From positions 1 to 15,600 of the forward strand of contig JAWBCC010000007.1 of the NCBI GenBank assembly GCA_038823825.1: a DNA stretch of 15,600 nucleotides, given 5' to 3'. The notes under the pieces are model-generated. The model worked only from the letters and a program-made list of their open reading frames with translations, was not told the DNA's origin and did not search any database. Source of the stretch: Candidatus Hadarchaeales archaeon (GTDB lineage Archaea; Hadarchaeota; Hadarchaeia; Hadarchaeales; Hadarchaeaceae). A program made the position numbers and the translations under genes. Of this stretch, positions 2,636 through 15,600 are shown piece by piece. Numbering within the stretch: the stretch's first letter is position 1; every line of letters starts with the position of its first letter.

Positions 2636-3730
2636 TCATGAAAATTTCAAAATCACAGCTATTATTAAGATTAAGACGATTACCGAAACCACGGCAACAA
2701 CAGGCACAGTTGGAAATGGTTTCGGTTTCTCTACAATCAGCAGGCTGCTCAAACCATCGACAGAGATCGTGTGCTCGCCAGGCTCCTCGACGGATACTGT
2801 GAAATCTACTGTTGTTCTTTGTCCAGCCGCAAGCAACACTTCTCTCGTTTCAATCTGAACTCCGTCTATCTTCAGAGTTAGAGTGTAACTTCCAGAAATC
2901 GTTCCAACGTTTGCGACATCAACAGAAGCGGTCACTTGCTCACCTGGCCTGGCTCGATTTTTCGACAGCCGGAGATTTTCCACAGCAAATTCGGCTACCT
3001 CCTCCGAAACCGTTACTATTCGGGAGAATCCATCCACAGAAACCGTGTGGGTCCCAATCTGTTGTATCGAGAGAGAAAAGGTTACCGTTGCCGACTGACC
3101 TGGATTAAGCTCAACTTGTCTGTTGTCGATCTGTGTCCCGTTCAACCTCAAGATGACGTTGTAACTCCCGGCAATCGTTCCGAAGTTTACAACGCTAACC
3201 TGTACACTGAATGTTTCGCCCGGCCTGAGAGCCGATTTAGATATGCTGAGATTTTCCAGTCTGAACTGTGCCATTCCCACGATGTTCAAAATGGCGCTTA
3301 AATTATCCACGGAGATAGTGTGGGGTCCCAGCTGCAGAATGGATACTGTGAAAGAAACCGTTGTCGATTGTCCGGCTGCTAGATAGACAGTTAGGTTATC
3401 CACAACGTTGTTATCGACACGCAAAACTAACGTGTGTTGTCCATCTGCCGTGCCTACATTTTTCACAGTTACCTGAACAGTGACATTCTCGCCAGGAAGC
3501 GCGTTATCCTTAGATAGTTTCAAATTTTCTATCACAAACTGCGCAACATTCTCGGGCGGAGGTAGAGGTGGAGGCGGCGGGGGAGGAGGGATGTTTTCCG
3601 GCAAAACCGTCACCTGAACCTGAATAGGAATCTCTTGTGGGGCAATAACCGGCATGCAAAACAGAATGAGCATAAACACACTTGTTAAAATCGAGATCGC
3701 TCTTCTCATTTTTTCACCTTTTCTTTTCAT
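2636..3730 (-). CDS. Surface protein: signal peptide, polyproline hinge, three CARDB-like repeats and a C-terminal TM anchor. No recognisable catalytic domain
   Basis: ORF of 364 aa. MRRAISILTSVFMLILFCMPVIA is a signal peptide. The true start may be the second ATG at 3709, because GGTGA precedes it and the BRE/TATA at 3737-3753 predicts a transcription start near 3715. PPPPPPPPLPPP is a linker. There are three ~91-aa repeats of the form F.(I/L/V)ENL.(L/I)SK...PGE.(V/F)...V.V.N.G...G...L.L..(D/N)......V.L..GQ..TV.F..S....G.HT(I/V)SVD, which is a CARDB-type pattern. The C-terminal helix is VVAVVSVIVLILIIAVILKFS. Confidence 0.85.
   Translation of the reverse strand: MKRKGEKMRRAISILTSVFMLILFCMPVIAPQEIPIQVQVTVLPENIPPPPPPPPLPPPENVAQFVIENLKLSKDNALPGENVTVQVTVKNVGTADGQHTLVLRVDNNVVDNLTVYLAAGQSTTVSFTVSILQLGPHTISVDNLSAILNIVGMAQFRLENLSISKSALRPGETFSVQVSVVNFGTIAGSYNVILRLNGTQIDNRQVELNPGQSATVTFSLSIQQIGTHTVSVDGFSRIVTVSEEVAEFAVENLRLSKNRARPGEQVTASVDVANVGTISGSYTLTLKIDGVQIETREVLLAAGQRTTVDFTVSVEEPGEHTISVDGLSSLLIVEKPKPFPTVPVVAVVSVIVLILIIAVILKFS
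2732..3538 (-). repeat. Three tandem ~275-nt coding repeats (CARDB-like domains)
   Basis: The protein-level periodicity is clear, at aa 65-150, 156-241 and 248-333 of the 364-aa product. Divergence is typical of domain repeats rather than a recent DNA duplication. Confidence 0.8.
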
Positions 3731-3760: not shown

Positions 3761-3795
3761 AAAAAAAAAGAAAAACGGCCCGGATCATCCGGGCC
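3761..3795 (-). terminator. Intrinsic-type terminator after the 466-aa gene (GC hairpin followed by a T-run)
   Basis: The minus-strand transcript reads TAA-gcgagag-GGCCCGGA-tga-TCCGGGCC-G-TTTTT-C-TTTTTTTTT. That is a perfect 8-bp GC-rich stem (3777-3784 pairing with 3788-3795), a 3-nt loop, then a 15-nt pyrimidine tract. Confidence 0.75.
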
Positions 3796-3802
3796 CTCTC
3801 GC

Positions 3803-5203
3803 TTATGGCTGTTGGGTTGAGAGCCAGATGTCATCCCAGAAGATGTCGGTTGATGGAACCGCAGTCGACGTTCTCTGAGCAGTTATGTAAATTCTTGCCC
3901 TTACCGCGTTCTCTGGAGCAGTAACTTGATAGGACACCTGTACCCAAGAGTCAAAAGCTGTTGCTGTGAAACCGCTGCCCGGTGTCTGTATGTAACCGCT
4001 ATCGTTTTCCCAGTATGGATACCATCTCACTCTGAAGAATAATCTATAGTTCTCCGGAAGAGCTCCACCTCCAGGATTCACTATATAGTAGTATCCCACA
4101 AGGTAGTACGTCGCGCCCGGGGTGAAGTTTGTAATGTTGTCTGAAGTCACGTATGAGCCATAACTGGTTGCCAGCTGTGTCTGCTTCGCCGAGTAACTAC
4201 CAGTTCTGGCGCGCTCACTAGATCTCGTCGAGTACGGTGGGGAGAACTGCCAGAAAGTGTCGTCCTCAAAGCTCGGGTTCTGAACCAAGTTCTGGGGTGA
4301 TGGGGGTACTATCAGAGTTTCCACTCTTACGTAAAACGTGTTTGTGTAGTTTCCTGCGACAACATTGCTCGGTATGTCCAGCCTCCACTGTATCTGTCTC
4401 TGAACACTTTCTCCATATGAAACATTCTTCCAGACGTTCTCGTACGTCGTGCTCAAGGAGACTTCTTCTTCACCTATCGCTTTTGCCGCGCTCGCGGGTA
4501 TTATATTTCCATTGGAGGTAAAGTTACCGGCCGCTTTGACTTTGATGGCGAAGTTCCGGTTTGAAGATACCGTCACAGTCATCGGACTCTGGGTTGCGTA
4601 AACGCTCTGCCCTTTGTAGCCGCTGAAGGAGAGGGTGTATGTGCTCAAAGACATCTCGAGGTAGACCTGAACCATAATCGCGTTGATATTCTCCAAATAG
4701 TTGTCTAAGCCAACGTTGTCTACTGCTCTAACATAAAGATCCCAAAATCCTGAAGCCGCGATCCTCGCAAGTTTCACCCGGAAGATTGCAGTGTATGTGT
4801 TTTCGGTCGGGTTCTCCTGAACTGACGAGTTGATGTTATCAATATAGTTCGCTCCAAGCGGACAGCTGAATCGCCAAGTTCCCGTGCTTTTCGAAGCCAC
4901 CCATGTGTAGTGGTTTCTGACGTTGTCGGGTGCCGCGTTATCGAGAGAGTTTTCGTAGGCCATTAGATAAATATTTTCCAAGTTCATCTCGTTGTCGTAA
5001 ACCACCACTACAATATTTGACCAGATGTTTGGAATTATCTCGACATTTTCTGGAGAAACCATGAGAACTGACGGTGGGTAGTATGGAATCTCCCAGATCT
5101 CTACTTCGACGTTAACCTGCTGCTCCTGATCCTGAGAGAGAACCGCCGGAATCATCGAAATGCTGATCAACAGTCCTAATAGAAGAGACACACTCTTCTT
5201 CAT
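3803..5203 (-). CDS. Secreted non-catalytic protein with two uncharacterised beta-sandwich domains (D1 'HYTW', D2 'QWRLDIP') and a C-terminal CBM4_9-like carbohydrate-binding domain. No membrane anchor
   Basis: ORF of 466 aa with an ATG start and a GGAGG Shine-Dalgarno 8 nt upstream. The signal peptide is MKKSVSLLLGLLISISMIPAVLS/QDQ. The C-terminal ~160 aa begin NLVQNPSFEDDTFWQF, continue ..ARTGSYSAK..PGATYYL.., and end FWDDIWL, which matches the CBM_4_9 (galactose-binding-like) pattern. The sequence carries 7 N-x-S/T sequons. D1 and D2 have paralogs at both window edges. Confidence 0.85.
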   Translation of the reverse strand: MKKSVSLLLGLLISISMIPAVLSQDQEQQVNVEVEIWEIPYYPPSVLMVSPENVEIIPNIWSNIVVVVYDNEMNLENIYLMAYENSLDNAAPDNVRNHYTWVASKSTGTWRFSCPLGANYIDNINSSVQENPTENTYTAIFRVKLARIAASGFWDLYVRAVDNVGLDNYLENINAIMVQVYLEMSLSTYTLSFSGYKGQSVYATQSPMTVTVSSNRNFAIKVKAAGNFTSNGNIIPASAAKAIGEEEVSLSTTYENVWKNVSYGESVQRQIQWRLDIPSNVVAGNYTNTFYVRVETLIVPPSPQNLVQNPSFEDDTFWQFSPPYSTRSSERARTGSYSAKQTQLATSYGSYVTSDNITNFTPGATYYLVGYYYIVNPGGGALPENYRLFFRVRWYPYWENDSGYIQTPGSGFTATAFDSWVQVSYQVTAPENAVRARIYITAQRTSTAVPSTDIFWDDIWLSTQQP

Positions 5204-5237
5204 TAATTTTCCTCCAAGAGCAAATTGTGATCATTAT

Positions 5238-5256
5238 TGTTTAAAACTTTTCGGTG
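5238..5256 (-). promoter_or_regulatory. Candidate internal BRE/TATA promoter for the 466-aa gene
   Basis: The minus strand reads CACCGAAAAGTTTTAAACA. CGAAAA is BRE-like and GTTTTAAA is a TATA-like box centred about 42 nt upstream of the ATG at 5203. This would leave a ~16-nt leader containing GGAGG. Confidence 0.4.
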
Positions 5257-5276
5257 CTGGACTTTTCCCCTTTTAC

Positions 5277-8200
5277 TTATTTGATTAGGAAAAACTTGAA
5301 AATCGCGAAAATGGCGCCTCCAATGGCTATCACAACTCCCACGACCCAAAGTGGAAAACCTGAAGGAACCACTTCCACGCTCTCGCTGAGCCCGTCCACA
5401 TTCACGGTGTGTGTTCCACTCTCATCGATTGACAAAGTGAAAAACACACATACAGACTCCCCCGCTGGAATCTCCAGAATTTTCTCATCTTTCTCGACGT
5501 TGTCAACAGCAAGCTTTATTGTTGTCTGCCCGGTCTCGTCACCGACATTTTTAACCCAGACATAAACCTTGAACTTTTCGCCGGGTGAAACTCTTCTCTT
5601 GGAAAGGCTCATGTTCTCGATGACGAAGACGGCCGGAGACCTCACAGTCAGCAGCAAGTTCTCCGACCACATTTTGCCGCCTCCGCTTACCGTCAGGCGC
5701 AGAGTGTACGTTCCCGCTTGGGCATTCGACCCAACCGAAACCGTCAGAGTTGATGTAAACGATGGAACTCCGGAAGACTGAGAAAAGGAAGCAGAGGAAT
5801 CTTGAGGAAGACCGGTCACCGAAAGATACATCGGTAGTTTAATTCCCGAAAGATAACCAATGGTAATCGTGAACGTCACAGATTCGCCGCGAAGAACCGT
5901 CCTTGATCTCGGAGAGACCGAAAGAGATATCTGTGGCGGCTGAACATTACCGAGATAGAAAATGAATTTCCCGCTTTCCCTTCTGTTTCCCATGCGATCT
6001 ACTGCAACAACAAACCATTCGTAGAAATTTTCGCCCAGTGCCGTGTTGTAAGTTGTGGCCGTCACATTTTCCACATTTTGTCCATTTATCCAGACTTCAT
6101 AATGGGAGAGCCCAGAAATTTCGTCCGAGGTAGCCTGCCACTGAAGGATGGGTGACTCTGAGAGGTGCGAACCGTTCTCCGGCGAAATTAGAGAAAACTG
6201 AAGAGGTGGTGTGAAATCCGCTACAAAGGTTTTCACAAGGCCCATCACCACCTTCCCGCTGTTGTTGTCCATAGCGACTGCGCGGAATTCGTAGGTTGAA
6301 TTTTCCATGATCCCCGAGACTATCGCCGAGAACCATTCACGCCAGCTCATTGTCCGTTTAGTGGTCTGGCTCCAAGAACCGCCCGCCGGTCTCCATTCCA
6401 ACCAGACCACAGTTTCCTGGTTATCAAGATCTTCAAGAAAACCGGAAAGAAGAACCGAACCAGATTGAACAGCCAGAGGATTTCCTGTCGTTGAGATTAT
6501 GGGAACCGCCTGTCCGTAAAAGGCGAAACTCGAAACTGATGGTGAGTGTGTTACATTTTCCGAGCGCAATGAAAACGTTACTCTCACAAATCTCGTCTGG
6601 GGAAGAGAGAGCGGAATTTTCTCAACACCTCCACTTAGAGTTATCCATCCGGTATTTTCCGCTGCCGTGGACCCGTCAAGTGAAGTCTCTACAAGAATCT
6701 TTACTTCTTCTCCCTGCGCGATCTTCGAGGATACTTCGAGAAATTCTAAAGACGACGTTTGGCCAAGATCGATCCAGTTTGAGATCCACTGACCGGATGT
6801 TTTGACTTCAGACAGCCCAGAATATAAAATCTTTATCTCGCTTTCAGACAGAGGTCTCCCGAAAACCATCACTTCATCGATCAATCCGTCGAAGCCCTCA
6901 CCTCCTCCGGGTTGATTTCCAATTGTGAACGAATTGGTATTTGAATTCAACCTCCCGAAGGAAGCCGGAGCTTCCCCAAGTCGAACCGCGTTGTCTTTGT
7001 AAATTCTGATTTTGCTCCCATCCCAGACGGCCGCTATTAGACTCCACGAATTGTTTGGAAAGTTTTGATCGGGGACCTCAAGCGTGTACTTGTTTCCAGC
7101 AGAATCCCAGACCATAAACGCGGTTGTTCCCCTAGCGCTCTCATTCACTCTCAACAGATAAACAATGTCTTTTTTCACGATTTCTCCGTTGTGCGGCTTC
7201 GAGCGCGGATTTATCCAAGCAACTATCGAAAGCCCAGAGAGTCCTTCCAAGATATCTTTATCTCCGACCTCTACTCTCGCCGTCCCTCCGGGAAAATCTA
7301 AAGCTCCGCCGATCCGTCCAGTAACCCATGATGCGCCAATAACCGTCCCGTGATTGCCGTAGCCGCTAGAGTCGTAAGCGGTTGCCCCAGATCCTTCATC
7401 GAATTTCCACCATCCGATTGGATCGAGCTTTATCAATTCGATCCCACCATATTGTTTGATTAAGAGATTTCCAGAGGTTGATCCAATTGACCACTCCTCC
7501 TGCGTATCGACAGAAAGAAGACTCTCCCTTTCTCTTACTGGAGCTCTAGCCAATCCAACGTACATGTCCGCTGCGCCGTAGTAAAGATACCAAATATTAT
7601 CAACTCTGACGAGACCTTCAGCGAAAACGCAATCCACGACCTGACCTGTCCTTTCCCAAGAGAACTCTGGTCGCATGAATGGCTCCTCGCATCTCGCCAC
7701 AATTTTGGTCGGGTCTCTTAACGAAAAAATGACCCAGCCAACTCTCATCATTCCTCCCGAGCCGAGCGGAGCATCAAGCGAGTTGTAAAGGAGGAATATT
7801 CCATTTTGAAGAACGAACGGTGCTGGTCCGGGTTCTATTGTAAGAGCATCAAAATATCCCCCGCGCCTTCGCATAACGACACCCCCAAGTGTCCAGTCTG
7901 TCAAGTTTTCGGAAAAGGCGTAGTAGAGATCGCCACCTCCAGCTCCCGCCTCCAGATACATCCAATATTTTCCATTTATCTTCACGGGGACTATAGCGCC
8001 GGATTTTGTCCACAGGCTTGTGTCTCTGAACGCAAGTCCAACCTTTTCCCAATTTTCTAAATTAGCGGATCTGGCAAGGGCAAGCCTCGCTGTGGTCCCA
8101 TCATAAGCCGTATACGTCATCCAGAAAGTTTCACCGATCTTCACAATTCTTGGGTCTTCGCATCCTCCACCGAGCTCATACCATTCTGTTGGAGCTATTG

Positions 8201-8924
8201 CTGGATTCGGTCTACGCTGCCAGTTTATTCCATCTGTGCTTGTGGCCATGCCGATTACGGAAGGTCCTCCATGTGAAGCCTGCGCCCTATAAAACATGTA
8301 GAAAACTCCATTGTGATAGGCAACAGCGGGATTATATGCGGCATACCCATCAAACCCGCTCCCACTTGGCCCAAAAACCGGAGAATTTTCCTTTACCCAT
8401 TCGTTCTCGAAGAATGGGGGTTTCGACTCTGCCTTTTTCACCGGAATGTTTTCCCGCCGGTTTACCTTGAATCTCTCCGGAAATTCCCTGCTTGATCCAT
8501 CCACACCAACCCAGACGCTCCAATTTCCAGGAGATGCTTTCCTATCAAGTTTTACTCTAAATGTCCATAGACCGGTGGAAACAGAGGATTTTGACGGATC
8601 GATATATCCAAATCCTGGACCTACCTCGGAGAACCCTTCACCCGACCGCCATCTGAATGTGTAGTGCTCCTCCAAGGAATCCCGAGCTTCAGGAGAAACT
8701 CCAGCTTTGTATAACTTGAGCAGAACCTCACTCGCGTTACCCGAAATCTGAACGCCTACGGAAAACCACACTTCCGGATCTATGTTGTCAAGAATTATTA
8801 TCGCGGATATCTGTGGAGCTGATTGCGCAAAAACAGTTGCTTCCGAAGTTGAAGCGATAAGAGTAAAAGCAGCTAAGAAAAAGACGAGTATCCTCCCGGA
8901 CTTCAAATCCGTCATCGTCTTCAC
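5277..8924 (-). CDS. Secreted, C-terminally membrane-anchored GH130-family (DUF377, beta-mannoside phosphorylase/hydrolase fold) multidomain protein
   Basis: ORF of 1215 aa. The start is either GTG at 8924, overlapping the upstream stop by 4 nt, or ATG at 8915, which is preceded by GAGTGA.
Domains, by aa:
- Signal peptide ..LIASTSEATVFA/QS.
- 37-155: D1-like domain (EEHYTFRW..GYIDPSKSSV..WTFRVKL..NWSVWVGVD).
- 172-462: GH130 motifs (YNPAVAYHNGVFYMFYRAQ, GMATSTDGINW, GCEDPRIV, WMTYTAYDG, YYGAADMYVGLA).
- 503-702: LamG (WWKFDEGSGATAYDSSGYGNHG..FDGLIDEVMVFGRPLSESEI).
- About 705-1095: about four further beta-sandwich, Fn3-like or Ig-like domains.
- 1099-1186: CARDB.
- TM helix WVVGVVIAIGGAIFAIF plus KFFLIK tail. 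Confidence 0.9.
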   Translation of the reverse strand: MKTMTDLKSGRILVFFLAAFTLIASTSEATVFAQSAPQISAIIILDNIDPEVWFSVGVQISGNASEVLLKLYKAGVSPEARDSLEEHYTFRWRSGEGFSEVGPGFGYIDPSKSSVSTGLWTFRVKLDRKASPGNWSVWVGVDGSSREFPERFKVNRRENIPVKKAESKPPFFENEWVKENSPVFGPSGSGFDGYAAYNPAVAYHNGVFYMFYRAQASHGGPSVIGMATSTDGINWQRRPNPAIAPTEWYELGGGCEDPRIVKIGETFWMTYTAYDGTTARLALARSANLENWEKVGLAFRDTSLWTKSGAIVPVKINGKYWMYLEAGAGGGDLYYAFSENLTDWTLGGVVMRRRGGYFDALTIEPGPAPFVLQNGIFLLYNSLDAPLGSGGMMRVGWVIFSLRDPTKIVARCEEPFMRPEFSWERTGQVVDCVFAEGLVRVDNIWYLYYGAADMYVGLARAPVRERESLLSVDTQEEWSIGSTSGNLLIKQYGGIELIKLDPIGWWKFDEGSGATAYDSSGYGNHGTVIGASWVTGRIGGALDFPGGTARVEVGDKDILEGLSGLSIVAWINPRSKPHNGEIVKKDIVYLLRVNESARGTTAFMVWDSAGNKYTLEVPDQNFPNNSWSLIAAVWDGSKIRIYKDNAVRLGEAPASFGRLNSNTNSFTIGNQPGGGEGFDGLIDEVMVFGRPLSESEIKILYSGLSEVKTSGQWISNWIDLGQTSSLEFLEVSSKIAQGEEVKILVETSLDGSTAAENTGWITLSGGVEKIPLSLPQTRFVRVTFSLRSENVTHSPSVSSFAFYGQAVPIISTTGNPLAVQSGSVLLSGFLEDLDNQETVVWLEWRPAGGSWSQTTKRTMSWREWFSAIVSGIMENSTYEFRAVAMDNNSGKVVMGLVKTFVADFTPPLQFSLISPENGSHLSESPILQWQATSDEISGLSHYEVWINGQNVENVTATTYNTALGENFYEWFVVAVDRMGNRRESGKFIFYLGNVQPPQISLSVSPRSRTVLRGESVTFTITIGYLSGIKLPMYLSVTGLPQDSSASFSQSSGVPSFTSTLTVSVGSNAQAGTYTLRLTVSGGGKMWSENLLLTVRSPAVFVIENMSLSKRRVSPGEKFKVYVWVKNVGDETGQTTIKLAVDNVEKDEKILEIPAGESVCVFFTLSIDESGTHTVNVDGLSESVEVVPSGFPLWVVGVVIAIGGAIFAIFKFFLIK

Positions 8925-9469
8925 TCGATTATTTTAGTAATTCGCTTTATCTCTGGATCTGTGAAAACATCGTGCTCATCGGTGCTAGTTGTGGAAAACT
9001 CAGAAACCACAGCTCCCTTCGGTCCAGCCTGGAACCAGTGCAACGTGTTTGGCGGAATTGTATACTGATCGCCAGGCTTCAGCACTATCTCATGTCTGGC
9101 TGTGAAATACTTTTCTCTTCCCTTAGGAATCTTGGCATGAATCTTTGGAGAAGGCTCGCCCGGCACGTAAAGGTATACTTTGCCCCAGCGACATCTGAAG
9201 GTCTCCATTTTTCCTGGTCTCTCACCAACTGGCGGATGTCTGTGCTCCGGACAAGTCTGATGGGGAAATAGAATCAACTCTTTCGCGCAGTAATAATCGT
9301 TGTTCACATAAACAACAAGCTGGAGTCCTATCCTCTCGACATCATTGAGACCGAAATCTGCAACCTCCATTTTTTCCTTTTCTTCTTTTGTCAGAACGAT
9401 TCCCGCCTGTTTGAGAAGCCTCAGCGCCCGGTCCCTGTACCTTCTCCATTGTTCGCGAGTTATTGCCAA
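8921..9469 (-). CDS. Cupin-fold D-lyxose/D-mannose ketol-isomerase (YdaE-like family), cytoplasmic
   Basis: ORF of 182 aa with a TTG start and a GGGAGG Shine-Dalgarno 9 nt upstream. From memory, the motifs match the lyxose isomerase family: EVADFGL, GLQLVVYVNNDYYCAKELILFPHQTCPEHRHPP, ETFRCRWGKVYLYV, YTIPPNTLHWFQAGPKGAVVSEFSTTSTDEHDVFTDP. No signal peptide is present. The stop overlaps the next gene's start (GTGA). Confidence 0.8.
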   Translation of the reverse strand: MAITREQWRRYRDRALRLLKQAGIVLTKEEKEKMEVADFGLNDVERIGLQLVVYVNNDYYCAKELILFPHQTCPEHRHPPVGERPGKMETFRCRWGKVYLYVPGEPSPKIHAKIPKGREKYFTARHEIVLKPGDQYTIPPNTLHWFQAGPKGAVVSEFSTTSTDEHDVFTDPEIKRITKIIE

Positions 9470-9491
9470 CTATATCGCCTCCCTAACTTTT

Positions 9492-9518
9492 CACTCATTA
9501 TCAATTAAAGCTTTCCGG
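9492..9518 (-). promoter_or_regulatory. Weak candidate internal BRE/TATA promoter with a downstream AATGAGTG element, ahead of the isomerase gene
   Basis: The minus strand reads CCGGAAAGCTTTAATTGATAATGAGTG. It has the same CG(G/A)AAA plus AT-box layout as the other intergenic regions. The predicted transcription start would fall at the Shine-Dalgarno, so read-through from upstream is equally possible. Confidence 0.3.
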
Positions 9519-9545
9519 TAAATTCTGAATTCCTTAATAAGAAAC

Positions 9546-10391
9546 CTAATGAGCTTCTTCCTCCTCCATTATCGCCATCATGAAGTATCTATGGAGGAGA
9601 ACGTAGATAACCAGCAGAGGCAAAACGGTCAGAATCGCACCTGCCATAAATAGATTCCACTTGGCGAGTCCTCCCATCATTCCGAAGAGTCCTACAGTCA
9701 CGGGCATCGCCTGAGACTCTACTCCACCGAGAACAAGACCAAAGAGAAAGTCGTTCCAAATCGAAGTGAACTGATAAATCATCACGGAAATGATGGCTGG
9801 TTTAGACGCCGGTAGAATTACCTTTCTGTAGATTTCCCAGTCGCTCGCTTTTCTTTTCTTCAATTCCCTTATTTTTTTGTCTGGAATGTGCGTGTAGAAG
9901 TTTCTAAAGAGAAGTGTGCAGATCGGAATTCCGTAAACTGTGTGAACGAAAACCATGCCGGGAAGAGTATACGTGAGATTCAGTTCGCTCATCGTCCTGA
10001 AAAGGGGAAAGACAATCGTCGTGTAAGGTAGGAATGTTCCTGCGACCAAAACCATGAAGAGCAACTCCTTATACCTGAACTTCTGCTTGGAGAATACATA
10101 ACCCATCCAAGATCCTATGATTATAGAGCAGAGAACCGCACCTGTCGTGAAGACTAGACTGTTGAGTAGTGGTCTCCCGAGTTTTTCTATGGCTTCTCCG
10201 TAAGCTTCCAAGGTCGGACTCCGGGGTGGCGCGAGCGGATTTGTGGTCCCTATTTCCGCCCAAGGCTTCAAAGAAGTGACTAAAGCGACCCAAATTGGGA
10301 GAAGGAAAATGAAGGTTACCACTATCAGAATCGCGTATATCAAAAGTCTTTTCCAATTCTTTTTGATATAATTCAAAACTTTCGCGATCAT
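9546..10391 (-). CDS. Carbohydrate ABC transporter permease (CUT1, MalG-like)
   Basis: ORF of 281 aa with six predicted hydrophobic helices. The BPD_transp_1-type loop reads ..KASDWEIYRKVILPASKPAIISVMIYQFTSIWNDFLFGLVL. The ATG overlaps the upstream stop (ATGA). Confidence 0.9.
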   Translation of the reverse strand: MIAKVLNYIKKNWKRLLIYAILIVVTFIFLLPIWVALVTSLKPWAEIGTTNPLAPPRSPTLEAYGEAIEKLGRPLLNSLVFTTGAVLCSIIIGSWMGYVFSKQKFRYKELLFMVLVAGTFLPYTTIVFPLFRTMSELNLTYTLPGMVFVHTVYGIPICTLLFRNFYTHIPDKKIRELKKRKASDWEIYRKVILPASKPAIISVMIYQFTSIWNDFLFGLVLGGVESQAMPVTVGLFGMMGGLAKWNLFMAGAILTVLPLLVIYVLLHRYFMMAIMEEEEAH

Positions 10392-11242
10392 CTATGTCCC
10401 CTGTATGAGAACCAGACGTATGGGAGAACTATCGCCAAAACTATTCCGACGAGAATGTTACCAATCACTGCCCCGTAGGCGACGTTCATTTTCTGGTAAG
10501 CTTCCACATAAACCAAAATTGGGAGGGTGTAGTAAGAGCCTGGAGGATACCCCCGAGCCATCGTCCACAGGAGATCAAAGGATGCTTTGAGAACAAAAAC
10601 GAAGATGACCACCGCACAACTCAGCAGAGGTATTCTCAACCTTGGAAACTCGACTTTCCAGAATATCTGCCACCAGTTCATCCCTTTTTTCCTTGCATTT
10701 TCTATTTCTTTTCTCGGAACAGATTTGAGACCGGCCAGCAAGACCAACGCAGAGTAACCTGAGAACTGCCAGATTATCGGAATCAAAACTGAAGCGAGTA
10801 TTGCGGATGAGCTTATCCAGTCGCGAGCAAAGAAACCCAATCTTATCGACCTCAGAAGTGAGTTTATCGCACCATCCGGCTGAAACATCCAAGACCATAT
10901 GACCCCAGTCACAACGAGTGAGAATGCAAACGGAAGTAGGAAGATTATGGTGAATATTTTTATCCCCTTTACTCGCTGGTTGAGCAAAAATGCGAGAAAT
11001 AGTCCTGCGGCAAGACAAAGCGGAATTGCGGAGAAGAGAATGAACGTGTTGAGAAGAGATCTCCCGAAGAGATCGCTTTTTATTACGGCAGAGTAGTTGC
11101 TGAGACCCACAAAATTGTACGAGGGAATCGCTCCCTTCCAATCGGTGAAGGAAATCACAACGTTCCAAGTGACCATTCCGTAAACGAAGTAGGCTGCCAG
11201 AACAAAGAGAACCAACACGGTTAGGAGTGTTGTTCTCTCCAA
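10388..11242 (-). CDS. Carbohydrate ABC transporter permease (CUT1, MalF-like)
   Basis: ORF of 284 aa and polytopic. The conserved loop reads EIENARKKGMNWWQIFWKVEFPRLRIPLL. It has a TTG start with GGGAG 5 nt upstream, 13 nt after the binding-protein stop. Confidence 0.9.
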   Translation of the reverse strand: MERTTLLTVLVLFVLAAYFVYGMVTWNVVISFTDWKGAIPSYNFVGLSNYSAVIKSDLFGRSLLNTFILFSAIPLCLAAGLFLAFLLNQRVKGIKIFTIIFLLPFAFSLVVTGVIWSWMFQPDGAINSLLRSIRLGFFARDWISSSAILASVLIPIIWQFSGYSALVLLAGLKSVPRKEIENARKKGMNWWQIFWKVEFPRLRIPLLSCAVVIFVFVLKASFDLLWTMARGYPPGSYYTLPILVYVEAYQKMNVAYGAVIGNILVGIVLAIVLPYVWFSYRGHR

Positions 11243-11255
11243 GAATCTCCCTCTA

Positions 11256-12614
11256 TCAGACGATGTCCCACGATATCGTGTAGGTTCCGGAGCGTATCAG
11301 AGAAGCGATTGTTGATGCCGAAGCGCTCACATTCTGGAACTCCACAAACTCGCTTATCTTCGGGTGAAGGTCGTACAGGATTTCGTTCGGAATGGCTATC
11401 CCGTGAGTGAAGCTCGGATAAAACTTAGTCTGCGGATTCCTCAGAGCAGAAGCCGCGTTCCTCGCATAACTGTTGGTGTATATATTGTCTGGAACATCAC
11501 GATAGGGGGAAACCGAACCTTTGACCGGGTTGAAGCTTGATTGAACCTCTAATGTCGTGTAAGAATAAACCCACCTTAGACCTCCAATCACATTACCTTT
11601 CTTCGGAACAACAAAACCGTCAACCACTAGACCAAACAAGTTTTCCGTTCCTGGCGCCAAAAAGATGTCGTACTGAACTCCAAGCGTCCATCCTCTCTGC
11701 TCGAAGTAAGCGTTGGCCCAATCGCCATGCACGTACATCGCAACACGACCGTTAAAGAGCTGACCGCAAGCCTCCGCCCAATTTCTAGCACGGTGATCAT
11801 CTGGAACATAACTCAAATATCTTTTGAATAACTGGAGGATTGGCTCCAGCTCTTCCGCCGTAACCGTTCCGTTTATGAACTTCTCATAGGTTTGTAGGCT
11901 ATATCCAGCCATTATTGTTTCAAATATTTGGGTGGCAGCCCAGTCAGTCCCCATTCCGTCACCAACCTCTAGCGGATAGATGTTCAGACCTCTCTCTTGT
12001 GCCCTCTGCTTGATTAAGTCACATAGATTGAAGAATTCTTCCCAAGTTCTAGGTGGATTCGTCATATCTATTCCGAGTTGCTGTAGGAGTTGCTTGTTGT
12101 AGAAAACTACATTCGTTCTGTGTACCCCAACTGGAACCAAATAGTAATTCCCATCAAGCTTGCACATCTTCTCTACTATAGCCGGTACACGTTCGGCAAT
12201 GTTCGCATACTCCCACAGATCGTTAAGATTTCTCAGATAGTATCCTCCGTATCTAGCTGTTTCGTAGCCGGGATGAGACTGGAAGGAACCCGGAATGTTT
12301 GTCCCGGCCACAAGAGAGGGAAGAATCCTCGGCGGCATGTTTCCACCGGCGCCTCCGGGCACGGGGACGGGCGTGAGAGTCATGTTCGGATAAAGCTGTT
12401 CCATCTTGTTCTTAAGAACTCTAAAACCTTGTTCCTCGACATCTATTGTCCACCAGTGGGCTACGCTCACGTTTCCACTTGCCTGATAATTTTCCACAAT
12501 TTCTTGAACATTCTCAGTAACTTCTGCCGGTCCTTCACGTCTCGTCACGACCAAAACCAATCCAGCAATTACAAGAATACCTATGACCACTGCGAGTATT
12601 TGCGTTATCTTCAA
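11256..12614 (-). CDS. Extracellular sugar-binding protein of the ABC transporter (family 1 / CUT1) with an N-terminal membrane anchor
   Basis: ORF of 452 aa. The N-terminal helix is ILAVVIGILVIAGLVLVV, followed by a long soluble domain of SBP_bac_1 size and character. TTG is the only possible start, because an in-frame stop lies 9 codons upstream with no other start codon between. GGAGG lies 8 nt upstream. The gene sits directly upstream of the two permeases. Confidence 0.8.
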   Translation of the reverse strand: MKITQILAVVIGILVIAGLVLVVTRREGPAEVTENVQEIVENYQASGNVSVAHWWTIDVEEQGFRVLKNKMEQLYPNMTLTPVPVPGGAGGNMPPRILPSLVAGTNIPGSFQSHPGYETARYGGYYLRNLNDLWEYANIAERVPAIVEKMCKLDGNYYLVPVGVHRTNVVFYNKQLLQQLGIDMTNPPRTWEEFFNLCDLIKQRAQERGLNIYPLEVGDGMGTDWAATQIFETIMAGYSLQTYEKFINGTVTAEELEPILQLFKRYLSYVPDDHRARNWAEACGQLFNGRVAMYVHGDWANAYFEQRGWTLGVQYDIFLAPGTENLFGLVVDGFVVPKKGNVIGGLRWVYSYTTLEVQSSFNPVKGSVSPYRDVPDNIYTNSYARNAASALRNPQTKFYPSFTHGIAIPNEILYDLHPKISEFVEFQNVSASASTIASLIRSGTYTISWDIV

Positions 12615-12616
12615 GT

Positions 12617-15361
12617 TTATCTCCTCCTTCCTTTTTTCATTCTAAGCACATAAAAACCAAACGCTAAAACAATGAACGCTGCTACTGATATAATTGCAAT
12701 GATGAATGTTGAGCCGAGGCCCGGTGTTCCTACAACGAAAGACGCCTGAAAGTTCTCAAGATCGATGGTATGCGTTCCCAAGGACAAAGCATGCGAGTAA
12801 ATGTTAAACACCACCGGAAGGGATTCCCCAGGCTGAAGAGAAACAGTTCTTGAATCCACAACAATCCCATCAAGCTTTAGCTGCAGGGTCTTCTCCACCA
12901 CTCTCGAGCTCTGGTTAGTAACGGTGACCTTAACTTTCAGAATGTCTCCTCGAGAGATGGAATTCGCCGATAAAGAGAAATTACTCAGAAGGATGTCGGA
13001 AACGGTAGAGCTAGACATGGAGGGTGGAGGCTCGCTCACGCCCCAGCTCGTGTTTGGATTTGGCCCCATCCAAAGCTCTAGCGTTCCTCCATTTATTATT
13101 TCAGAATGCCAGAGCCAAGCTCTTTCAAGTGGCTGCCCATTGAGTTTAGCTGATTGAACGTAAATGTTCGTTGGTGAATTGTTGTAAACGATTATTTCAA
13201 ACTTTTTGTTTTGACCGTAAAAGCTCGGCAGATTTATCGTTATCTTGTCAAAAATGGGGCTTCCGATGACATACGTGAGACTAGGTGGACAAACCGGATA
13301 GAAACCCATAGAACTGAAAATAAACCACGCTGACATCTGACCGCAATCATCATTTCCGGGTAGACCGTGGGGACCGAGCCGATATCTCGTCTCCAGAACA
13401 TTTCTCACCCAGTATTGTGTTCTCCATGGAGCTCCCGCATATACAAAGAGATAGGCGATGTGATGGCTCGGCTCGTTGCCGTGCCAGTAGTATCTCACCC
13501 TTCCCTGTTCCGTGAATCTGTTATCCGCAAGAAGAGAAGGTTCTTCGCTTTTTTCGAAGAGTCTTTCCAGCTTTCCGATGAAATTCTCCTTCCCCATTAC
13601 GTCTATTAGCCCCTGAACATCGTGCGGAACGAACCAAGTGTACTGCCACGGATTTCCTTCATTTGGTTGAGTTATATATGAGTAATAGCCCCGCGGGTCG
13701 AAGGGTTCTTCCCAGGTCCCATCGGATTTTCTTCCTTGAACATATCCTTTGTAGGGATTGCCGGGTTCGCCTGGAGCTTCCGGATTGTAAACATTCCTCC
13801 AGTTTGTTGCACGTTGCATGAAGTATCTATAATCGTTGTCCTTCCCAAGAGCTTTTGCGAGTTGTGCTATACACCAATCGTCGTAAGCATACTCTAAGGT
13901 CAGGGAAACAGATTCGCGGTATCCCCTATCGGTCGGACAGTAACCGAGAGTCATGTAGTCTTCAATTCCCGTTCTTGCCTCATAGAACGGAGGTGGACTC
14001 TGAGTAGCGTTCTTCACCATGGCCTCATATGCCTTCTGAACGTCGAAGTCCGTTATTCCCTTTAGATACGCCTCAGTCACCAAAGAATCTCCGTGAGTTC
14101 CGATCATTATACTCGAATAACCAGGGTTGGGCCACTTTGGCATCCACCCTCCCTGTTCGTACATGGCAACCAGAGAACGCATCATATCCCTAACTCTTTC
14201 CGGAACTAGGAAAATTTGGAGAGCGTGCAGGGCCCTGAAGGTGTCCCACATTGAAAAATCATTGTAGAACTCCCAGCCGTCGCATGTATGCACACGTGCG
14301 TCAAAAACGCTGAAATATTTTCCGTATTCGGATGAGACCCTGGGAAGGAGAAGTGCATGATAGAGCGCCGTGTAGAATTTTATTTTATCGGCGTCTGTTC
14401 CACCCTCAACTCGGATCATGCTGAGAAGCTGGTTCCACTTCTGTCTAGCCTGCTGTCTAACACCATCGAAGTCCCAACCAGGAATTTCAGCTTGCATGTT
14501 GTAACGAGCCTGCTCAACGCTTATGAATGAGATGCTCGCTTTCACGTAAACAACTTCTCCTGCGCTTACGGGGAAAGATACCCAAGCACCAGAATTGTAT
14601 GCGCGCACCTCAGTGTTGCCAGGATTTTTTGTGGAGCCCTGATATGTTCCCCACGAAGTAAACTGCTTGCTGAAGGTAACAACGTAGTATCCTTTGAATT
14701 CACCAGTTGGGGCTCTGTATAAACCGACGTCAGAATATCCGACAATCTCATTGTTTTCAGGTATTATCTTAGACCAACCTGTTCCTAAATGCGTGTCTAT
14801 CAAAATGTGAGCATTGCCCGAGTTTTCGAATGTAAGCCTAAGAAGACCGACGCGCATAGTCGAGGTGACTTCTACTCGAATCCCATAGTCATCGAATGTG
14901 ACCGCATAATAGCCGGGGGTTGCGATCTCCGTTTCGTGCCTTATCCTCGAGGATCTCTCCGGACCTGTTTTGACCTCGCTCCCGAACATCGGCATGATCG
15001 TTATGCATGCATAATCAGACATGCAGGAGCCGCTCGGGAAGTGCGATCCCCTTATTCCTGCTATTTCCATCGTGTCTGCTGGCTTCCACCTTCCTCCCTC
15101 CTCGATGAATATGTATTCATATGGATAGGAAATGTCTGAGGCCTGCTCCTTTCTCACCGGATCCCATGTTGTCATTGCGAAAGGAACAGCGGCGCCTGGA
15201 CTTGTGTGACCATGACGAGTTCCGATGAAAGGATCTACATAATCAACCGGATCCGTGCCACGCGGAGAAGTGAGCCAAGGAACAGATGCAGATGCAGAGC
15301 TTATAAAAATAAGAAGAAAAATCGTCATAACGACTAGACTTCTCCCGAATTCTCTATTCAT
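12617..15361 (-). CDS. Secreted GH92 alpha-mannosidase with a C-terminal CARDB domain and membrane anchor
   Basis: ORF of 914 aa. The signal peptide is ..IFLLIFISSASAS/VPW. GH92 signatures are present: DYVDPFIGT, LEYAYDDWCIAQLAKALGK, GNPWQYTWFVPHDVQGLI, YWHGNEPSHHIAYLF, LPGNDDCGQMSAWFIFSSMGFYPVCP. The CARDB-like domain spans aa 790-874, the TM helix is STFIIAIISVAAFIVLAFGFYVL, and the basic tail is RMKKGRRR. An ATG start has GGGAGGGG about 9 nt upstream. Confidence 0.93.
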   Translation of the reverse strand: MNREFGRSLVVMTIFLLIFISSASASVPWLTSPRGTDPVDYVDPFIGTRHGHTSPGAAVPFAMTTWDPVRKEQASDISYPYEYIFIEEGGRWKPADTMEIAGIRGSHFPSGSCMSDYACITIMPMFGSEVKTGPERSSRIRHETEIATPGYYAVTFDDYGIRVEVTSTMRVGLLRLTFENSGNAHILIDTHLGTGWSKIIPENNEIVGYSDVGLYRAPTGEFKGYYVVTFSKQFTSWGTYQGSTKNPGNTEVRAYNSGAWVSFPVSAGEVVYVKASISFISVEQARYNMQAEIPGWDFDGVRQQARQKWNQLLSMIRVEGGTDADKIKFYTALYHALLLPRVSSEYGKYFSVFDARVHTCDGWEFYNDFSMWDTFRALHALQIFLVPERVRDMMRSLVAMYEQGGWMPKWPNPGYSSIMIGTHGDSLVTEAYLKGITDFDVQKAYEAMVKNATQSPPPFYEARTGIEDYMTLGYCPTDRGYRESVSLTLEYAYDDWCIAQLAKALGKDNDYRYFMQRATNWRNVYNPEAPGEPGNPYKGYVQGRKSDGTWEEPFDPRGYYSYITQPNEGNPWQYTWFVPHDVQGLIDVMGKENFIGKLERLFEKSEEPSLLADNRFTEQGRVRYYWHGNEPSHHIAYLFVYAGAPWRTQYWVRNVLETRYRLGPHGLPGNDDCGQMSAWFIFSSMGFYPVCPPSLTYVIGSPIFDKITINLPSFYGQNKKFEIIVYNNSPTNIYVQSAKLNGQPLERAWLWHSEIINGGTLELWMGPNPNTSWGVSEPPPSMSSSTVSDILLSNFSLSANSISRGDILKVKVTVTNQSSRVVEKTLQLKLDGIVVDSRTVSLQPGESLPVVFNIYSHALSLGTHTIDLENFQASFVVGTPGLGSTFIIAIISVAAFIVLAFGFYVLRMKKGRRR

Positions 15362-15386
15362 CTAGAATTCCCCTCCCAGTATCCTT

Positions 15387-15427
15387 CTCATTCTCATTTT
15401 TCGGAAAGGTATATAAAGATTTTTGAC
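15387..15427 (-). promoter_or_regulatory. Archaeal promoter of the GH92 / ABC transporter transcription unit
   Basis: The minus strand reads GTCAAAAATCTTTATATACCTTTCCGAAAAATGAGAATGAG. It contains a consensus TTTATATA box (15417-15410) with an A-rich BRE-like stretch upstream, centred about 52 nt before the ATG. That predicts a ~26-nt leader carrying the Shine-Dalgarno. A tandem AATGAG-AATGAG lies between the TATA box and the predicted transcription start. Confidence 0.6.
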
Positions 15428-15434
15428 TCTTGCT

Positions 15435-15467
15435 GAAAAAAGAAAAAAGAAAGAAAAAGGAAAAGGG
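15435..15467 (-). terminator. Pyrimidine/oligo-T terminator of the right-edge gene
   Basis: The minus strand reads CCCTTTTCCTTTTTCTTTCTTTTTTCTTTTTTC. It begins 7 nt after the TAA stop, with several T4-T6 runs. Confidence 0.55.
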
Positions 15468-15473
15468 CTAGGA

Positions 15474-15600
15474 TTAGGCCGAAACTCTCACGTAGAATGT
15501 GTTCGTGTAGTCTCCTGGAACTGCGTCGGCAGGTATGTCGAGTCTCCACTGAATCTGCTTCTGAACATCTTCACCGTAGGAGACATTGCTCCAGACTGCT
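15474..15600 (-). CDS. 3' end (41 codons plus stop) of a gene encoding a paralog of domain D2 of the 466-aa protein. Absent from the ORF track
   Basis: My translation of the reverse strand gives AVWSNVSYGEDVQKQIQWRLDIPADAVPGDYTNTFYVRVSA*. This aligns with NVWKNVSYGESVQRQIQWRLDIPSNVVAGNYTNTFYVRVET of the 3803..5203 product. By eye, DNA identity to 4316-4440 is about 75 percent. Confidence 0.8.
   Translation of the reverse strand, partial: AVWSNVSYGEDVQKQIQWRLDIPADAVPGDYTNTFYVRVSA

Follow-up and report, generated by a model that had tools for sequence, protein, structure and literature searches.

A probable mannoside-foraging operon with membrane-anchored GH92 and GH130 glycosidases in a Hadarchaeales archaeon

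We analysed a stretch of 15,600 nucleotides (hereafter the window), which is a complete 15.6-kb contig (JAWBCC010000007.1) of a metagenome-assembled genome (MAG) of Candidatus Hadarchaeales, and in which every long open reading frame (ORF) lies on the minus strand. Six co-directional genes, coding for a glycoside hydrolase of family 92 (GH92), the binding protein and two permeases of a CUT1-type ATP-binding cassette (ABC) importer, a cupin of the D-lyxose/D-mannose isomerase family and a multidomain protein with a GH130 domain, probably constitute a mannoside-foraging operon of this archaeon. In the order of transcription these genes are:

12617-15361, minus strand: GH92 protein, 914 amino acids (Pfam, TIGR01180)
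11256-12614, minus strand: CUT1-type solute-binding protein, 452 amino acids (SBP_bac_1, SBP_bac_8), with a TTG start behind a GGAGGAG site
10388-11242, minus strand: ABC permease 1, MalF/GlcT-like, 284 amino acids (BPD_transp_1)
9546-10391, minus strand: ABC permease 2, MalG/GlcU-like, 281 amino acids (BPD_transp_1)
8921-9469, minus strand: D-lyxose/D-mannose isomerase-family cupin, 182 amino acids (Pfam Lyx_isomer), with a TTG start behind GGGAGG
5277-8924, minus strand: multidomain GH130 protein, 1215 amino acids (Glyco_hydro_130, Laminin_G_3, Big_7 and CARDB in Pfam)

In the mechanism that we propose, the GH92 and GH130 proteins would be tethered to the exterior side of the membrane by C-terminal anchors composed of a CARDB domain and a helix, where a Ca-dependent GH92 exo-alpha-mannosidase and a GH130 exo-beta-1,2-mannosidase, extended by LamG and immunoglobulin-like (Ig-like) domains, would free mannose from external mannose-rich glycans. 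The membrane-anchored CUT1 binding protein and the two permeases would then take up mannose as the monosaccharide, with import driven by an ATPase encoded elsewhere. The cytoplasmic cupin isomerase would turn mannose into fructose and a PfkB-type kinase, encoded elsewhere in the genome, would phosphorylate fructose for glycolysis. Computation gave the family memberships, the residue patterns of the active sites, the predicted topology and the conservation of gene order; from these we infer co-transcription, the substrates, which sugar is transported and in which direction the flux runs.

Close relatives of the GH92 protein were located in metagenomes and five contigs were read. The core formed by GH92, the solute-binding protein and the two permeases recurs in all five, with 44-80% identity between the GH92 proteins:

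L088, GH92 80% identical: gene order of the window, including the GH130-LamG protein
L089, GH92 66% identical: GH130 upstream, the core, then the isomerase and an overlapping PfkB, with phosphofructokinase (PFK), fructose-bisphosphate aldolase and an archaeal-type triosephosphate isomerase nearby
L092, GH92 64% identical: the core, then a 129-amino-acid ORF and the isomerase, at the contig end
L091, GH92 63% identical: the core, then a ROK glucokinase-type kinase and a phosphoglucose/phosphomannose isomerase (PGI/PMI, above the curated cut-off), without the cupin isomerase; an archaeal TATA-binding protein is encoded on the same contig
L093, GH92 44% identical: GH92, solute-binding protein, a MalK-type ATPase, two permeases, isomerase and PfkB

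Since the same gene order recurs in such diverged contigs, the arrangement is not a product of chance. A survey of GH92 and GH130 neighbourhoods had been suggested in a first-pass annotation of this DNA, made from the sequence alone, and it revealed a GH92-ABC core conserved in the five contigs, with GH130 present in L088 and L089. Orthologues of the isomerase follow the core in four of the five (L088, L089, L092 and L093), and the PfkB kinases of L093 and L089, 78% identical to each other, score close to fructokinase. The isomerase with PfkB, on the one hand, and the ROK kinase with PGI/PMI, on the other, offer two alternative ways by which free mannose can reach fructose-6-phosphate. Because both downstream arrangements lead mannose to this intermediate, mannose would be the cargo of the importer and the substrate of the cupin, and this is the strongest argument available. 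As background, we considered 80 more distant GH92 loci listed from metagenomes (35-49% identity), none of which has the isomerase; a related binding protein was observed in one and a distant GH130 (24-27% identity) in five of them.

The GH92 protein matches both Pfam domains of its family well above the cut-offs (Glyco_hydro_92N, E 1e-52, 179.7 bits for a cut-off of 34.5; Glyco_hydro_92, E 4.5e-184, 613 bits for a cut-off of 24.6), as well as TIGR01180 (656 bits, cut-off 249.6). It is composed of a signal-like N-terminus, an N-domain (residues 41-278), a catalytic domain (residues 284-767), a CARDB-like domain (approximately residues 787-880) and a transmembrane helix (residues 887-905) followed by the tail LRMKKGRRR. 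Active-site residues were mapped to the numbering of BT3990 through an alignment with the 2WVX structure (chain index + 19). The catalytic acid Glu533 and the base Asp644 are conserved, in the NEGNPW and GNDDCG motifs, respectively, and the position of Asp642 is occupied by an asparagine, as is also the case in the active enzymes 6F8Z and 7ZGM. The His584-Glu585 pair, which binds the +1 mannose and marks alpha-1,2-specific GH92 enzymes (PMC9522356), reads Ala-Asp in the C-domain of the window protein, which therefore does not carry the signature of that subgroup. The best matches in the PDB are two alpha-1,3-mannosidases, 7ZGM and 6F8Z (BT3130), with a small margin over alpha-1,2 enzymes. The protein is predicted to be a Ca-dependent exo-alpha-mannosidase, to which we ascribe no particular linkage.

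Hydropathy analysis identified, in both glycosidases, a hydrophobic segment resembling a signal sequence at the N-terminus and one transmembrane helix, with a basic tail, at the C-terminus, in agreement with the membrane tethering put forward in the first-pass annotation. The same C-terminal cassette (CARDB, one transmembrane helix and a basic tail) is present in the GH92 protein (12647-13003), in the GH130 protein (5289-5624) and in a 364-amino-acid protein encoded further downstream (2636-2900), and seems to be an anchor reused for the display of surface proteins. No PGF-CTERM or similar NCBIfam model for archaeosortase-type sorting signals was matched.

Enzymes anchored in the cell's own membrane, beside many lineage-specific CARDB, LamG and Ig-like surface proteins, could instead trim or recycle the S-layer or membrane glycoconjugates of the same cell, the importer salvaging the mannose released, all the more as mannose is common in archaeal glycoproteins. 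However, the combination of an importer with enzymes of glycolytic entry (PfkB, PFK, aldolase and triosephosphate isomerase in L089) is the signature of a catabolic locus, and no glycosyltransferase or oligosaccharyltransferase gene is found nearby (the genes of the window are also present on a 59-kb contig of a sister assembly, the sister contig). We therefore consider such recycling of self-glycans unlikely.

The SBP_bac_1 binding protein and the two BPD_transp_1 permeases of the MalF/MalG type place the importer in CUT1. The binding protein has an N-terminal transmembrane anchor (residues 6-24) and its best solved relatives are monosaccharide binders, namely the glucose/galactose-binding protein of Thermus (2B3B, E 1e-33), 4R2B and 5DVF. 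The best NCBIfam matches of the importer components are the archaeal GlcS, GlcT and GlcU, far below the equivalog cut-offs: the GlcS match is weak, permease 1 has GlcT as its best match, below the cut-off, and permease 2 scores 160 bits against GlcU, also below the cut-off. These matches point to an importer of the monosaccharide (glucose) type, not to a GlcS orthologue. Neither the window nor the part of the sister contig that was read (30 kb) encodes a MalK/MsmK-type ATPase, and the ATPase of the importer is presumably shared and encoded elsewhere in the genome. Di- and oligosaccharides are the usual cargo of CUT1 importers, and, together with the low GlcS/T/U scores, this would also fit the import of short manno-oligosaccharides that are broken down further inside the cell. 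This is quite unlikely, considering that the best solved relatives of the binding protein bind glucose or galactose, that no cytoplasmic glycosidase or phosphorylase is encoded in the window or in the five related loci and that the cytoplasmic enzymes act on monosaccharides only.

The cupin matches Lyx_isomer (PF07385) with 39.6 bits (cut-off 20.8) and is related over its full length to the D-lyxose isomerase of Thermofilum sp. (TsLI; PDB 7NZO, E 3e-80, 61% identity) and to Bacillus subtilis YdaE (PDB 2Y0O, E 2e-65, 62% identity), with which it shares the cupin fold. Its hydropathy profile has no hydrophobic segment and we propose it to be cytoplasmic. The isomerase family is unusually conserved, its members from many thermophiles, both bacterial and archaeal, being 65-70% identical. 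TsLI, the closest characterised archaeal relative, prefers lyxose and has less than 2% activity on mannose (De Rose et al., 2021; PMC8378251), the sugars having been compared at 10 mM for a Km of 74 mM. The residue Arg175, proposed to determine this specificity, is conserved in the window cupin, and the cysteine that forms the TsLI disulfide, Cys22, is replaced by a glycine. Unlike TsLI, studied as an isolated enzyme and without a physiological context, the window gene is embedded in a mannoside locus.

On the basis of gene context, and not of the sequence alone, we propose that the cupin converts mannose to fructose. It would act on mannose in vivo because the neighbourhoods offer the coupling to PfkB or, as an alternative route, ROK with PGI/PMI. 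On family knowledge this step was the weakest link of the pathway drawn in the first-pass annotation, and it is now backed by conserved neighbourhoods. The conserved Arg175 would agree with another target, a glycan containing D-lyxose or another rare pentose: GH92 and GH130 would accept lyxopyranosides (mannose minus C6), lyxose would be imported and the cupin would produce xylulose. We consider this very unlikely, since L089 and L093 combine the isomerase with a kinase of the PfkB type and not with an FGGY xylulokinase, L091 has a hexokinase and PGI/PMI in the place of the isomerase, pointing to a hexose, and the cupin is equally close (62%) to YdaE. In addition, D-lyxose glycans are very rare in nature.

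The GH130 assignment of the first-pass annotation was right as to the family and describes a single domain (approximately residues 171-465; Glyco_hydro_130, E 1.2e-54, 185.9 bits, cut-off 26) of a 1215-amino-acid protein. This protein is composed of a signal peptide, a lineage-specific beta-sandwich (approximately 8445-8822), the GH130 domain (7530-8414), a Laminin_G_3 domain (6831-7289), Ig-like repeats, a CARDB domain (5397-5624) and a transmembrane helix (5289-5345). In the public annotation, 5277-8924 is named only 'LamG-like jellyroll fold domain-containing protein', and the GH130 domain does not appear in the name. The best PDB matches of the domain are the beta-1,2-mannosidase BT3780 (5A7V) and the phosphorylase 9FJ8, with about equal scores. 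In NCBIfam, the BT3780 equivalog is matched with 166 bits for a cut-off of 550, hence the window protein is not an orthologue.

Hydrolases of the GH130 family were described as having lost three basic phosphate ligands, which are replaced by carboxylates, as having a signal peptide and as using Lys199 for the beta-1,2 linkage (Cuskin et al., 2015; PMC4599007). We compared these positions, in BT3780 numbering, in an alignment of 22 sequences. The window domain retains the residues of the -1 subsite, Asn74 (YNPA), Arg89 (FYRA) and Asp142, the latter in the Glu141-Asp142 pair of CEDPR, as well as Lys199 (TKSG, aligned with CKSG of BT3780) and the equivalent of Glu268 (TIEPGP). All three basic phosphate-binding residues are absent (LHR, SARVG and IYH in 9FJ8 versus YLE, LTIE and LYN in the window): an asparagine (LLYN) stands for the histidine of IYH, a threonine for the arginine of SARVG, and an acidic loop without basic residues, YLEAGAGGGD, is present where 9FJ8 has LHRR. 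Because the phosphate ligands are lost, Glu268 and Lys199 are kept, and both a signal peptide and a membrane anchor are predicted in the protein, the domain is predicted to be a secreted beta-1,2-mannosidase, a hydrolase. That it is a phosphorylase, as are most characterised GH130 enzymes and as could be read from the top NCBIfam match (beta-1,2-mannobiose phosphorylase, 181 bits, below the 450-bit cut-off) and from the near-equal 9FJ8 score, is highly improbable given these replacements and the export of the protein, known phosphorylases being cytoplasmic.

Two other observations concern this family. In two lineages, L001 (2567-6661) and L089 (7704-10004), large surface proteins encoded beside GH92 include a GH130-like domain that has diverged from that of the window (28-30% identity); it keeps the Glu-Asp and Lys motifs, has very different loops and may be an active enzyme or a lectin-like module. 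In L003 (4443-7327; Thermoplasmata archaeon UBA9212), on a short contig, three GH130 domains in tandem are 42%, 49% and 37% identical to that of the window, the closest among the species-representative matches listed.

Several observations weigh against a mannoside-foraging operon as proposed. The same arginine, Arg175, that was held responsible for the low mannose activity of TsLI is present in the cupin. The Glu227 position of BT3780 falls in the YLEAGAGGGD loop, which has a four-residue insertion and contains both a glutamate and an aspartate, so that its one-to-one placement is ambiguous. The window has no gene for an ABC ATPase, a sugar kinase or a regulator. TATA-like boxes precede the cupin gene and the gene that follows GH130, and could be internal promoters that give rise to several transcripts. 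A natural source of beta-1,2-mannosides in hot or subsurface habitats is not known, as was also stated for Thermoanaerobacter (Chiku et al., 2014; PMC4264767). Finally, none of the 80 nearest GH130 relatives listed from species-representative genomes has a GH92 or an isomerase gene within 10 kb; these matches, which did not include the species of the window, start with a Thermoplasmata MAG (49%), followed by Acidobacteriota (approximately 45%), and are mostly bacterial single-domain genes. Since its nearest listed relatives have neither gene nearby, GH130 is a looser accessory than the rest of the module, added to the core in no fewer than two lineages, one comprising the window and L088 and the other L089.

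The remaining features of the window, of which the transcription signals, the hairpin and the spacer were read from the sequence, are the following:

15474-15600, minus strand: last 42 codons of the upstream gene, stop codon at 15474-15476
15436-15466, minus strand: T-rich tract past the stop codon of the upstream gene
15410-15417, minus strand: TATA box TTTATATA, immediately preceded by an A-rich stretch and located 52 nucleotides before the ATG of GH92
approximately 15369-15376, minus strand: ribosome-binding site GGGAGGGG of GH92
9470-9545, minus strand: 76-nucleotide spacer between permease 2 and the cupin
3803-5203, minus strand: secreted protein of 466 amino acids, with a signal peptide and without an anchor; weak CBM_4_9 match
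3761-3796, minus strand: GC-rich hairpin (GGGCCCGG..CCGGGCC), then a 15-nucleotide T-rich run
2636-3730, minus strand: protein with three CARDB domains (364 amino acids; profile matches)
2-2545, minus strand: LamG/DNRLRE protein, more than 848 amino acids, running off the left end of the window; 1001 amino acids on the longer contig

The T-rich tract at 15436-15466 is likely an archaeal terminator, marking the start of a new transcription unit, in which TTTATATA would act as a promoter element and the six genes would be co-transcribed. The co-directional array runs on past 5277; no terminator was seen in the sequence between the GH130 gene and the 466-amino-acid protein gene, which is possibly the last gene of the unit, and only after it are the hairpin and T-run (3761-3796) found, likely the end of the transcription unit. 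The TATA-like boxes mentioned above, CTTTAATTG (in 9470-9545) and TTTTAAAC (in 5204-5276), are AT-rich and located approximately 35-40 nucleotides upstream of the cupin and of the 466-amino-acid protein gene, respectively.

The structure described in the first-pass annotation was largely recovered in the sequence: the six genes lie at the coordinates listed above, on one strand, the TATA promoter proposed ahead of GH92 corresponds to TTTATATA, and the 2-nucleotide gap, the 13-nucleotide gap and the ATGA overlap (permease 1/permease 2) were read as it had them. Its GTGA overlap between the cupin and GH130 holds with a GTG start at 8924, whereas the NCBI start, an ATG at 8915 (1212 amino acids), leaves a 5-nucleotide spacer instead, and its account of tight or overlapping junctions, correct for those it listed, left out the 76-nucleotide gap between permease 2 and the cupin. 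Scans of the window with Rfam and for tRNAs detected no RNA genes.

The 466-amino-acid protein is formed by tandem Ig-like sandwiches and a C-terminal domain resembling a carbohydrate-binding module (CBM). Its AlphaFold2 model has a pLDDT of 71.7, and a fold search retrieved generic Ig/CBM-like beta-sandwich matches only. The family has 16 members in a database of 5.8 billion clusters, all named ones being from Hadarchaeales and some being fused to Kelch or DUF2341; the protein is a candidate glycan-binding accessory. We also noticed a lineage-restricted beta-sandwich module, with the motif NHYTW..GTW.FSCPLG..YID, in four proteins of the island: at the N-terminus of the GH130 protein (8445-8822), in the 466-amino-acid protein (3803-5203), at the C-terminal end of the window copy of the LamG protein (2-300) and at the C-terminus of the upstream DUF2341 protein (15474-15600). 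This module may be involved in surface assembly or glycan binding.

The left 2.5 kb of the window, seemingly free of ORFs, are occupied by a long reading frame on the minus strand, which is cut by the end of the window. This is the LamG protein (2-2545), in which a DNRLRE/CBM96-like domain at the N-terminus is accompanied by a LamG domain and by two repeats, each approximately 140 amino acids long, in its interior. The gene is preceded by a T-rich and TATA-like region of its own and probably forms a separate transcription unit. On the longer contig, the LamG protein is the last of the array of surface proteins, and the housekeeping genes guaA, IMPDH, purH and pyrG come next; upstream of GH92 are the DUF2341 protein and a 1364-amino-acid LamG/CARDB protein with a divergent GH130-like domain. 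A 182-amino-acid gene upstream of the latter, on the 59-kb contig, was considered as a second cupin and rejected, as tblastn gave no similarity.

The pairing of GH92 alpha-mannosidases with a GH130 beta-1,2-mannosidase, BT3780, is known from the polysaccharide utilisation loci (PULs) for yeast mannan of Bacteroides thetaiotaomicron, the MAN-PULs (Cuskin et al., 2015; PMC4599007). The Hadarchaeales locus is similar to these in having a secreted GH92 and a hydrolase-type GH130 with the beta-1,2 lysine determinant, clustered in what would be a catabolic locus. Unlike the MAN-PULs, it has no SusC/SusD, TonB dependence, lipoprotein anchor, GH76, GH99, GH125 or hybrid two-component regulator, and it has C-terminal transmembrane-helix anchors, an importer of the monosaccharide CUT1 type and a glycolytic entry by isomerisation to fructose. 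In the beta-1,2-oligomannan cluster of the thermophile Thermoanaerobacter sp. X-514 (Teth514_1785-1796; Chiku et al., 2014; PMC4264767), an ABC importer is also coupled to GH130 of the beta-1,2-mannoside type, as predicted for the window domain. In that cluster, GH130 is represented by cytoplasmic phosphorylases, oligomannan enters the cell intact and the product is directed to GDP-mannose, whereas in the window GH130 would be an extracellular hydrolase, accompanied by a GH92, and the cargo is likely to be free mannose.

Extracellular glycosidases, a binding-protein importer and cytoplasmic catabolic enzymes in one cluster, as in the window, are also the logic of operons for glycan use that are built around an ABC transporter in Gram-positive bacteria and in Thermococcales, for instance the N-glycan system with GH92 of Streptococcus pneumoniae and the chitin cluster of Thermococcus kodakarensis. 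These operons differ from the window locus in enzyme families and in anchoring and, to our knowledge, the D-lyxose/D-mannose isomerase step is not described in them. A full-text search of the literature, in an incomplete library, retrieved no description of an archaeal GH92/GH130 locus, of mannoside use by Hadarchaeota or of the association of the isomerase with mannosidases and an ABC importer; in that library, the first-pass view that such surface systems are uncharacterised in archaea stands.

The family assignments made in that annotation (GH92, GH130, the CUT1 components and the isomerase) were all upheld by Pfam and NCBIfam hidden Markov models. Its complete pathway can be retained for the enzymes, the binding protein, the permeases and the isomerase, with the ATPase, the sugar kinase and the regulator missing from the window, and its functional analogue of a PUL is apt as to pairing and logic for a locus that, without SusC/SusD, is not a PUL. 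Among the three substrates that it offered, the eukaryote-type N-glycan is the least supported, because no endo-beta-N-acetylglucosaminidase or peptide-N-glycosidase is present and GH130 has the beta-1,2, not the beta-1,4, determinant. To these proposals our analysis adds, as supported predictions, a GH130 of the hydrolase and beta-1,2 type, an importer of the monosaccharide type and a conserved core with two alternative routes of mannose entry.

Hadarchaeota are known only from metagenomes, and the foraging of surface glycans would add a concrete heterotrophic trait to this lineage. The pairing of GH92 with a hydrolase-type GH130, as in gut Bacteroides, would also exist in archaea, rebuilt around an ABC importer and helix anchors, and the two glycosidases are candidates for thermostable mannosidases of the alpha and beta-1,2 types. 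Since the GH130 protein is annotated as 'LamG-like' only, surveys based on product names miss it. The locus also places the isomerase family, whose members have so far been studied with a view to sugar manufacture, in a physiological context. More tentatively, and with less than even confidence, we suggest that the isomerase of the module formed by GH92, the CUT1 importer, the isomerase and PfkB could catalyse the first step of a mannose pathway in which the kinase acts late (mannose to fructose to fructose-6-phosphate) and which is supplied by the alpha- and beta-mannosidases of the surface, that this could be the natural role of the widespread 'D-lyxose isomerase' family of thermophiles, and that the Hadarchaeota members could be glycan scavengers. 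If this is true, mannose-rich envelopes or solutes produced by other thermophiles in the vicinity are perhaps the food of Hadarchaeota.

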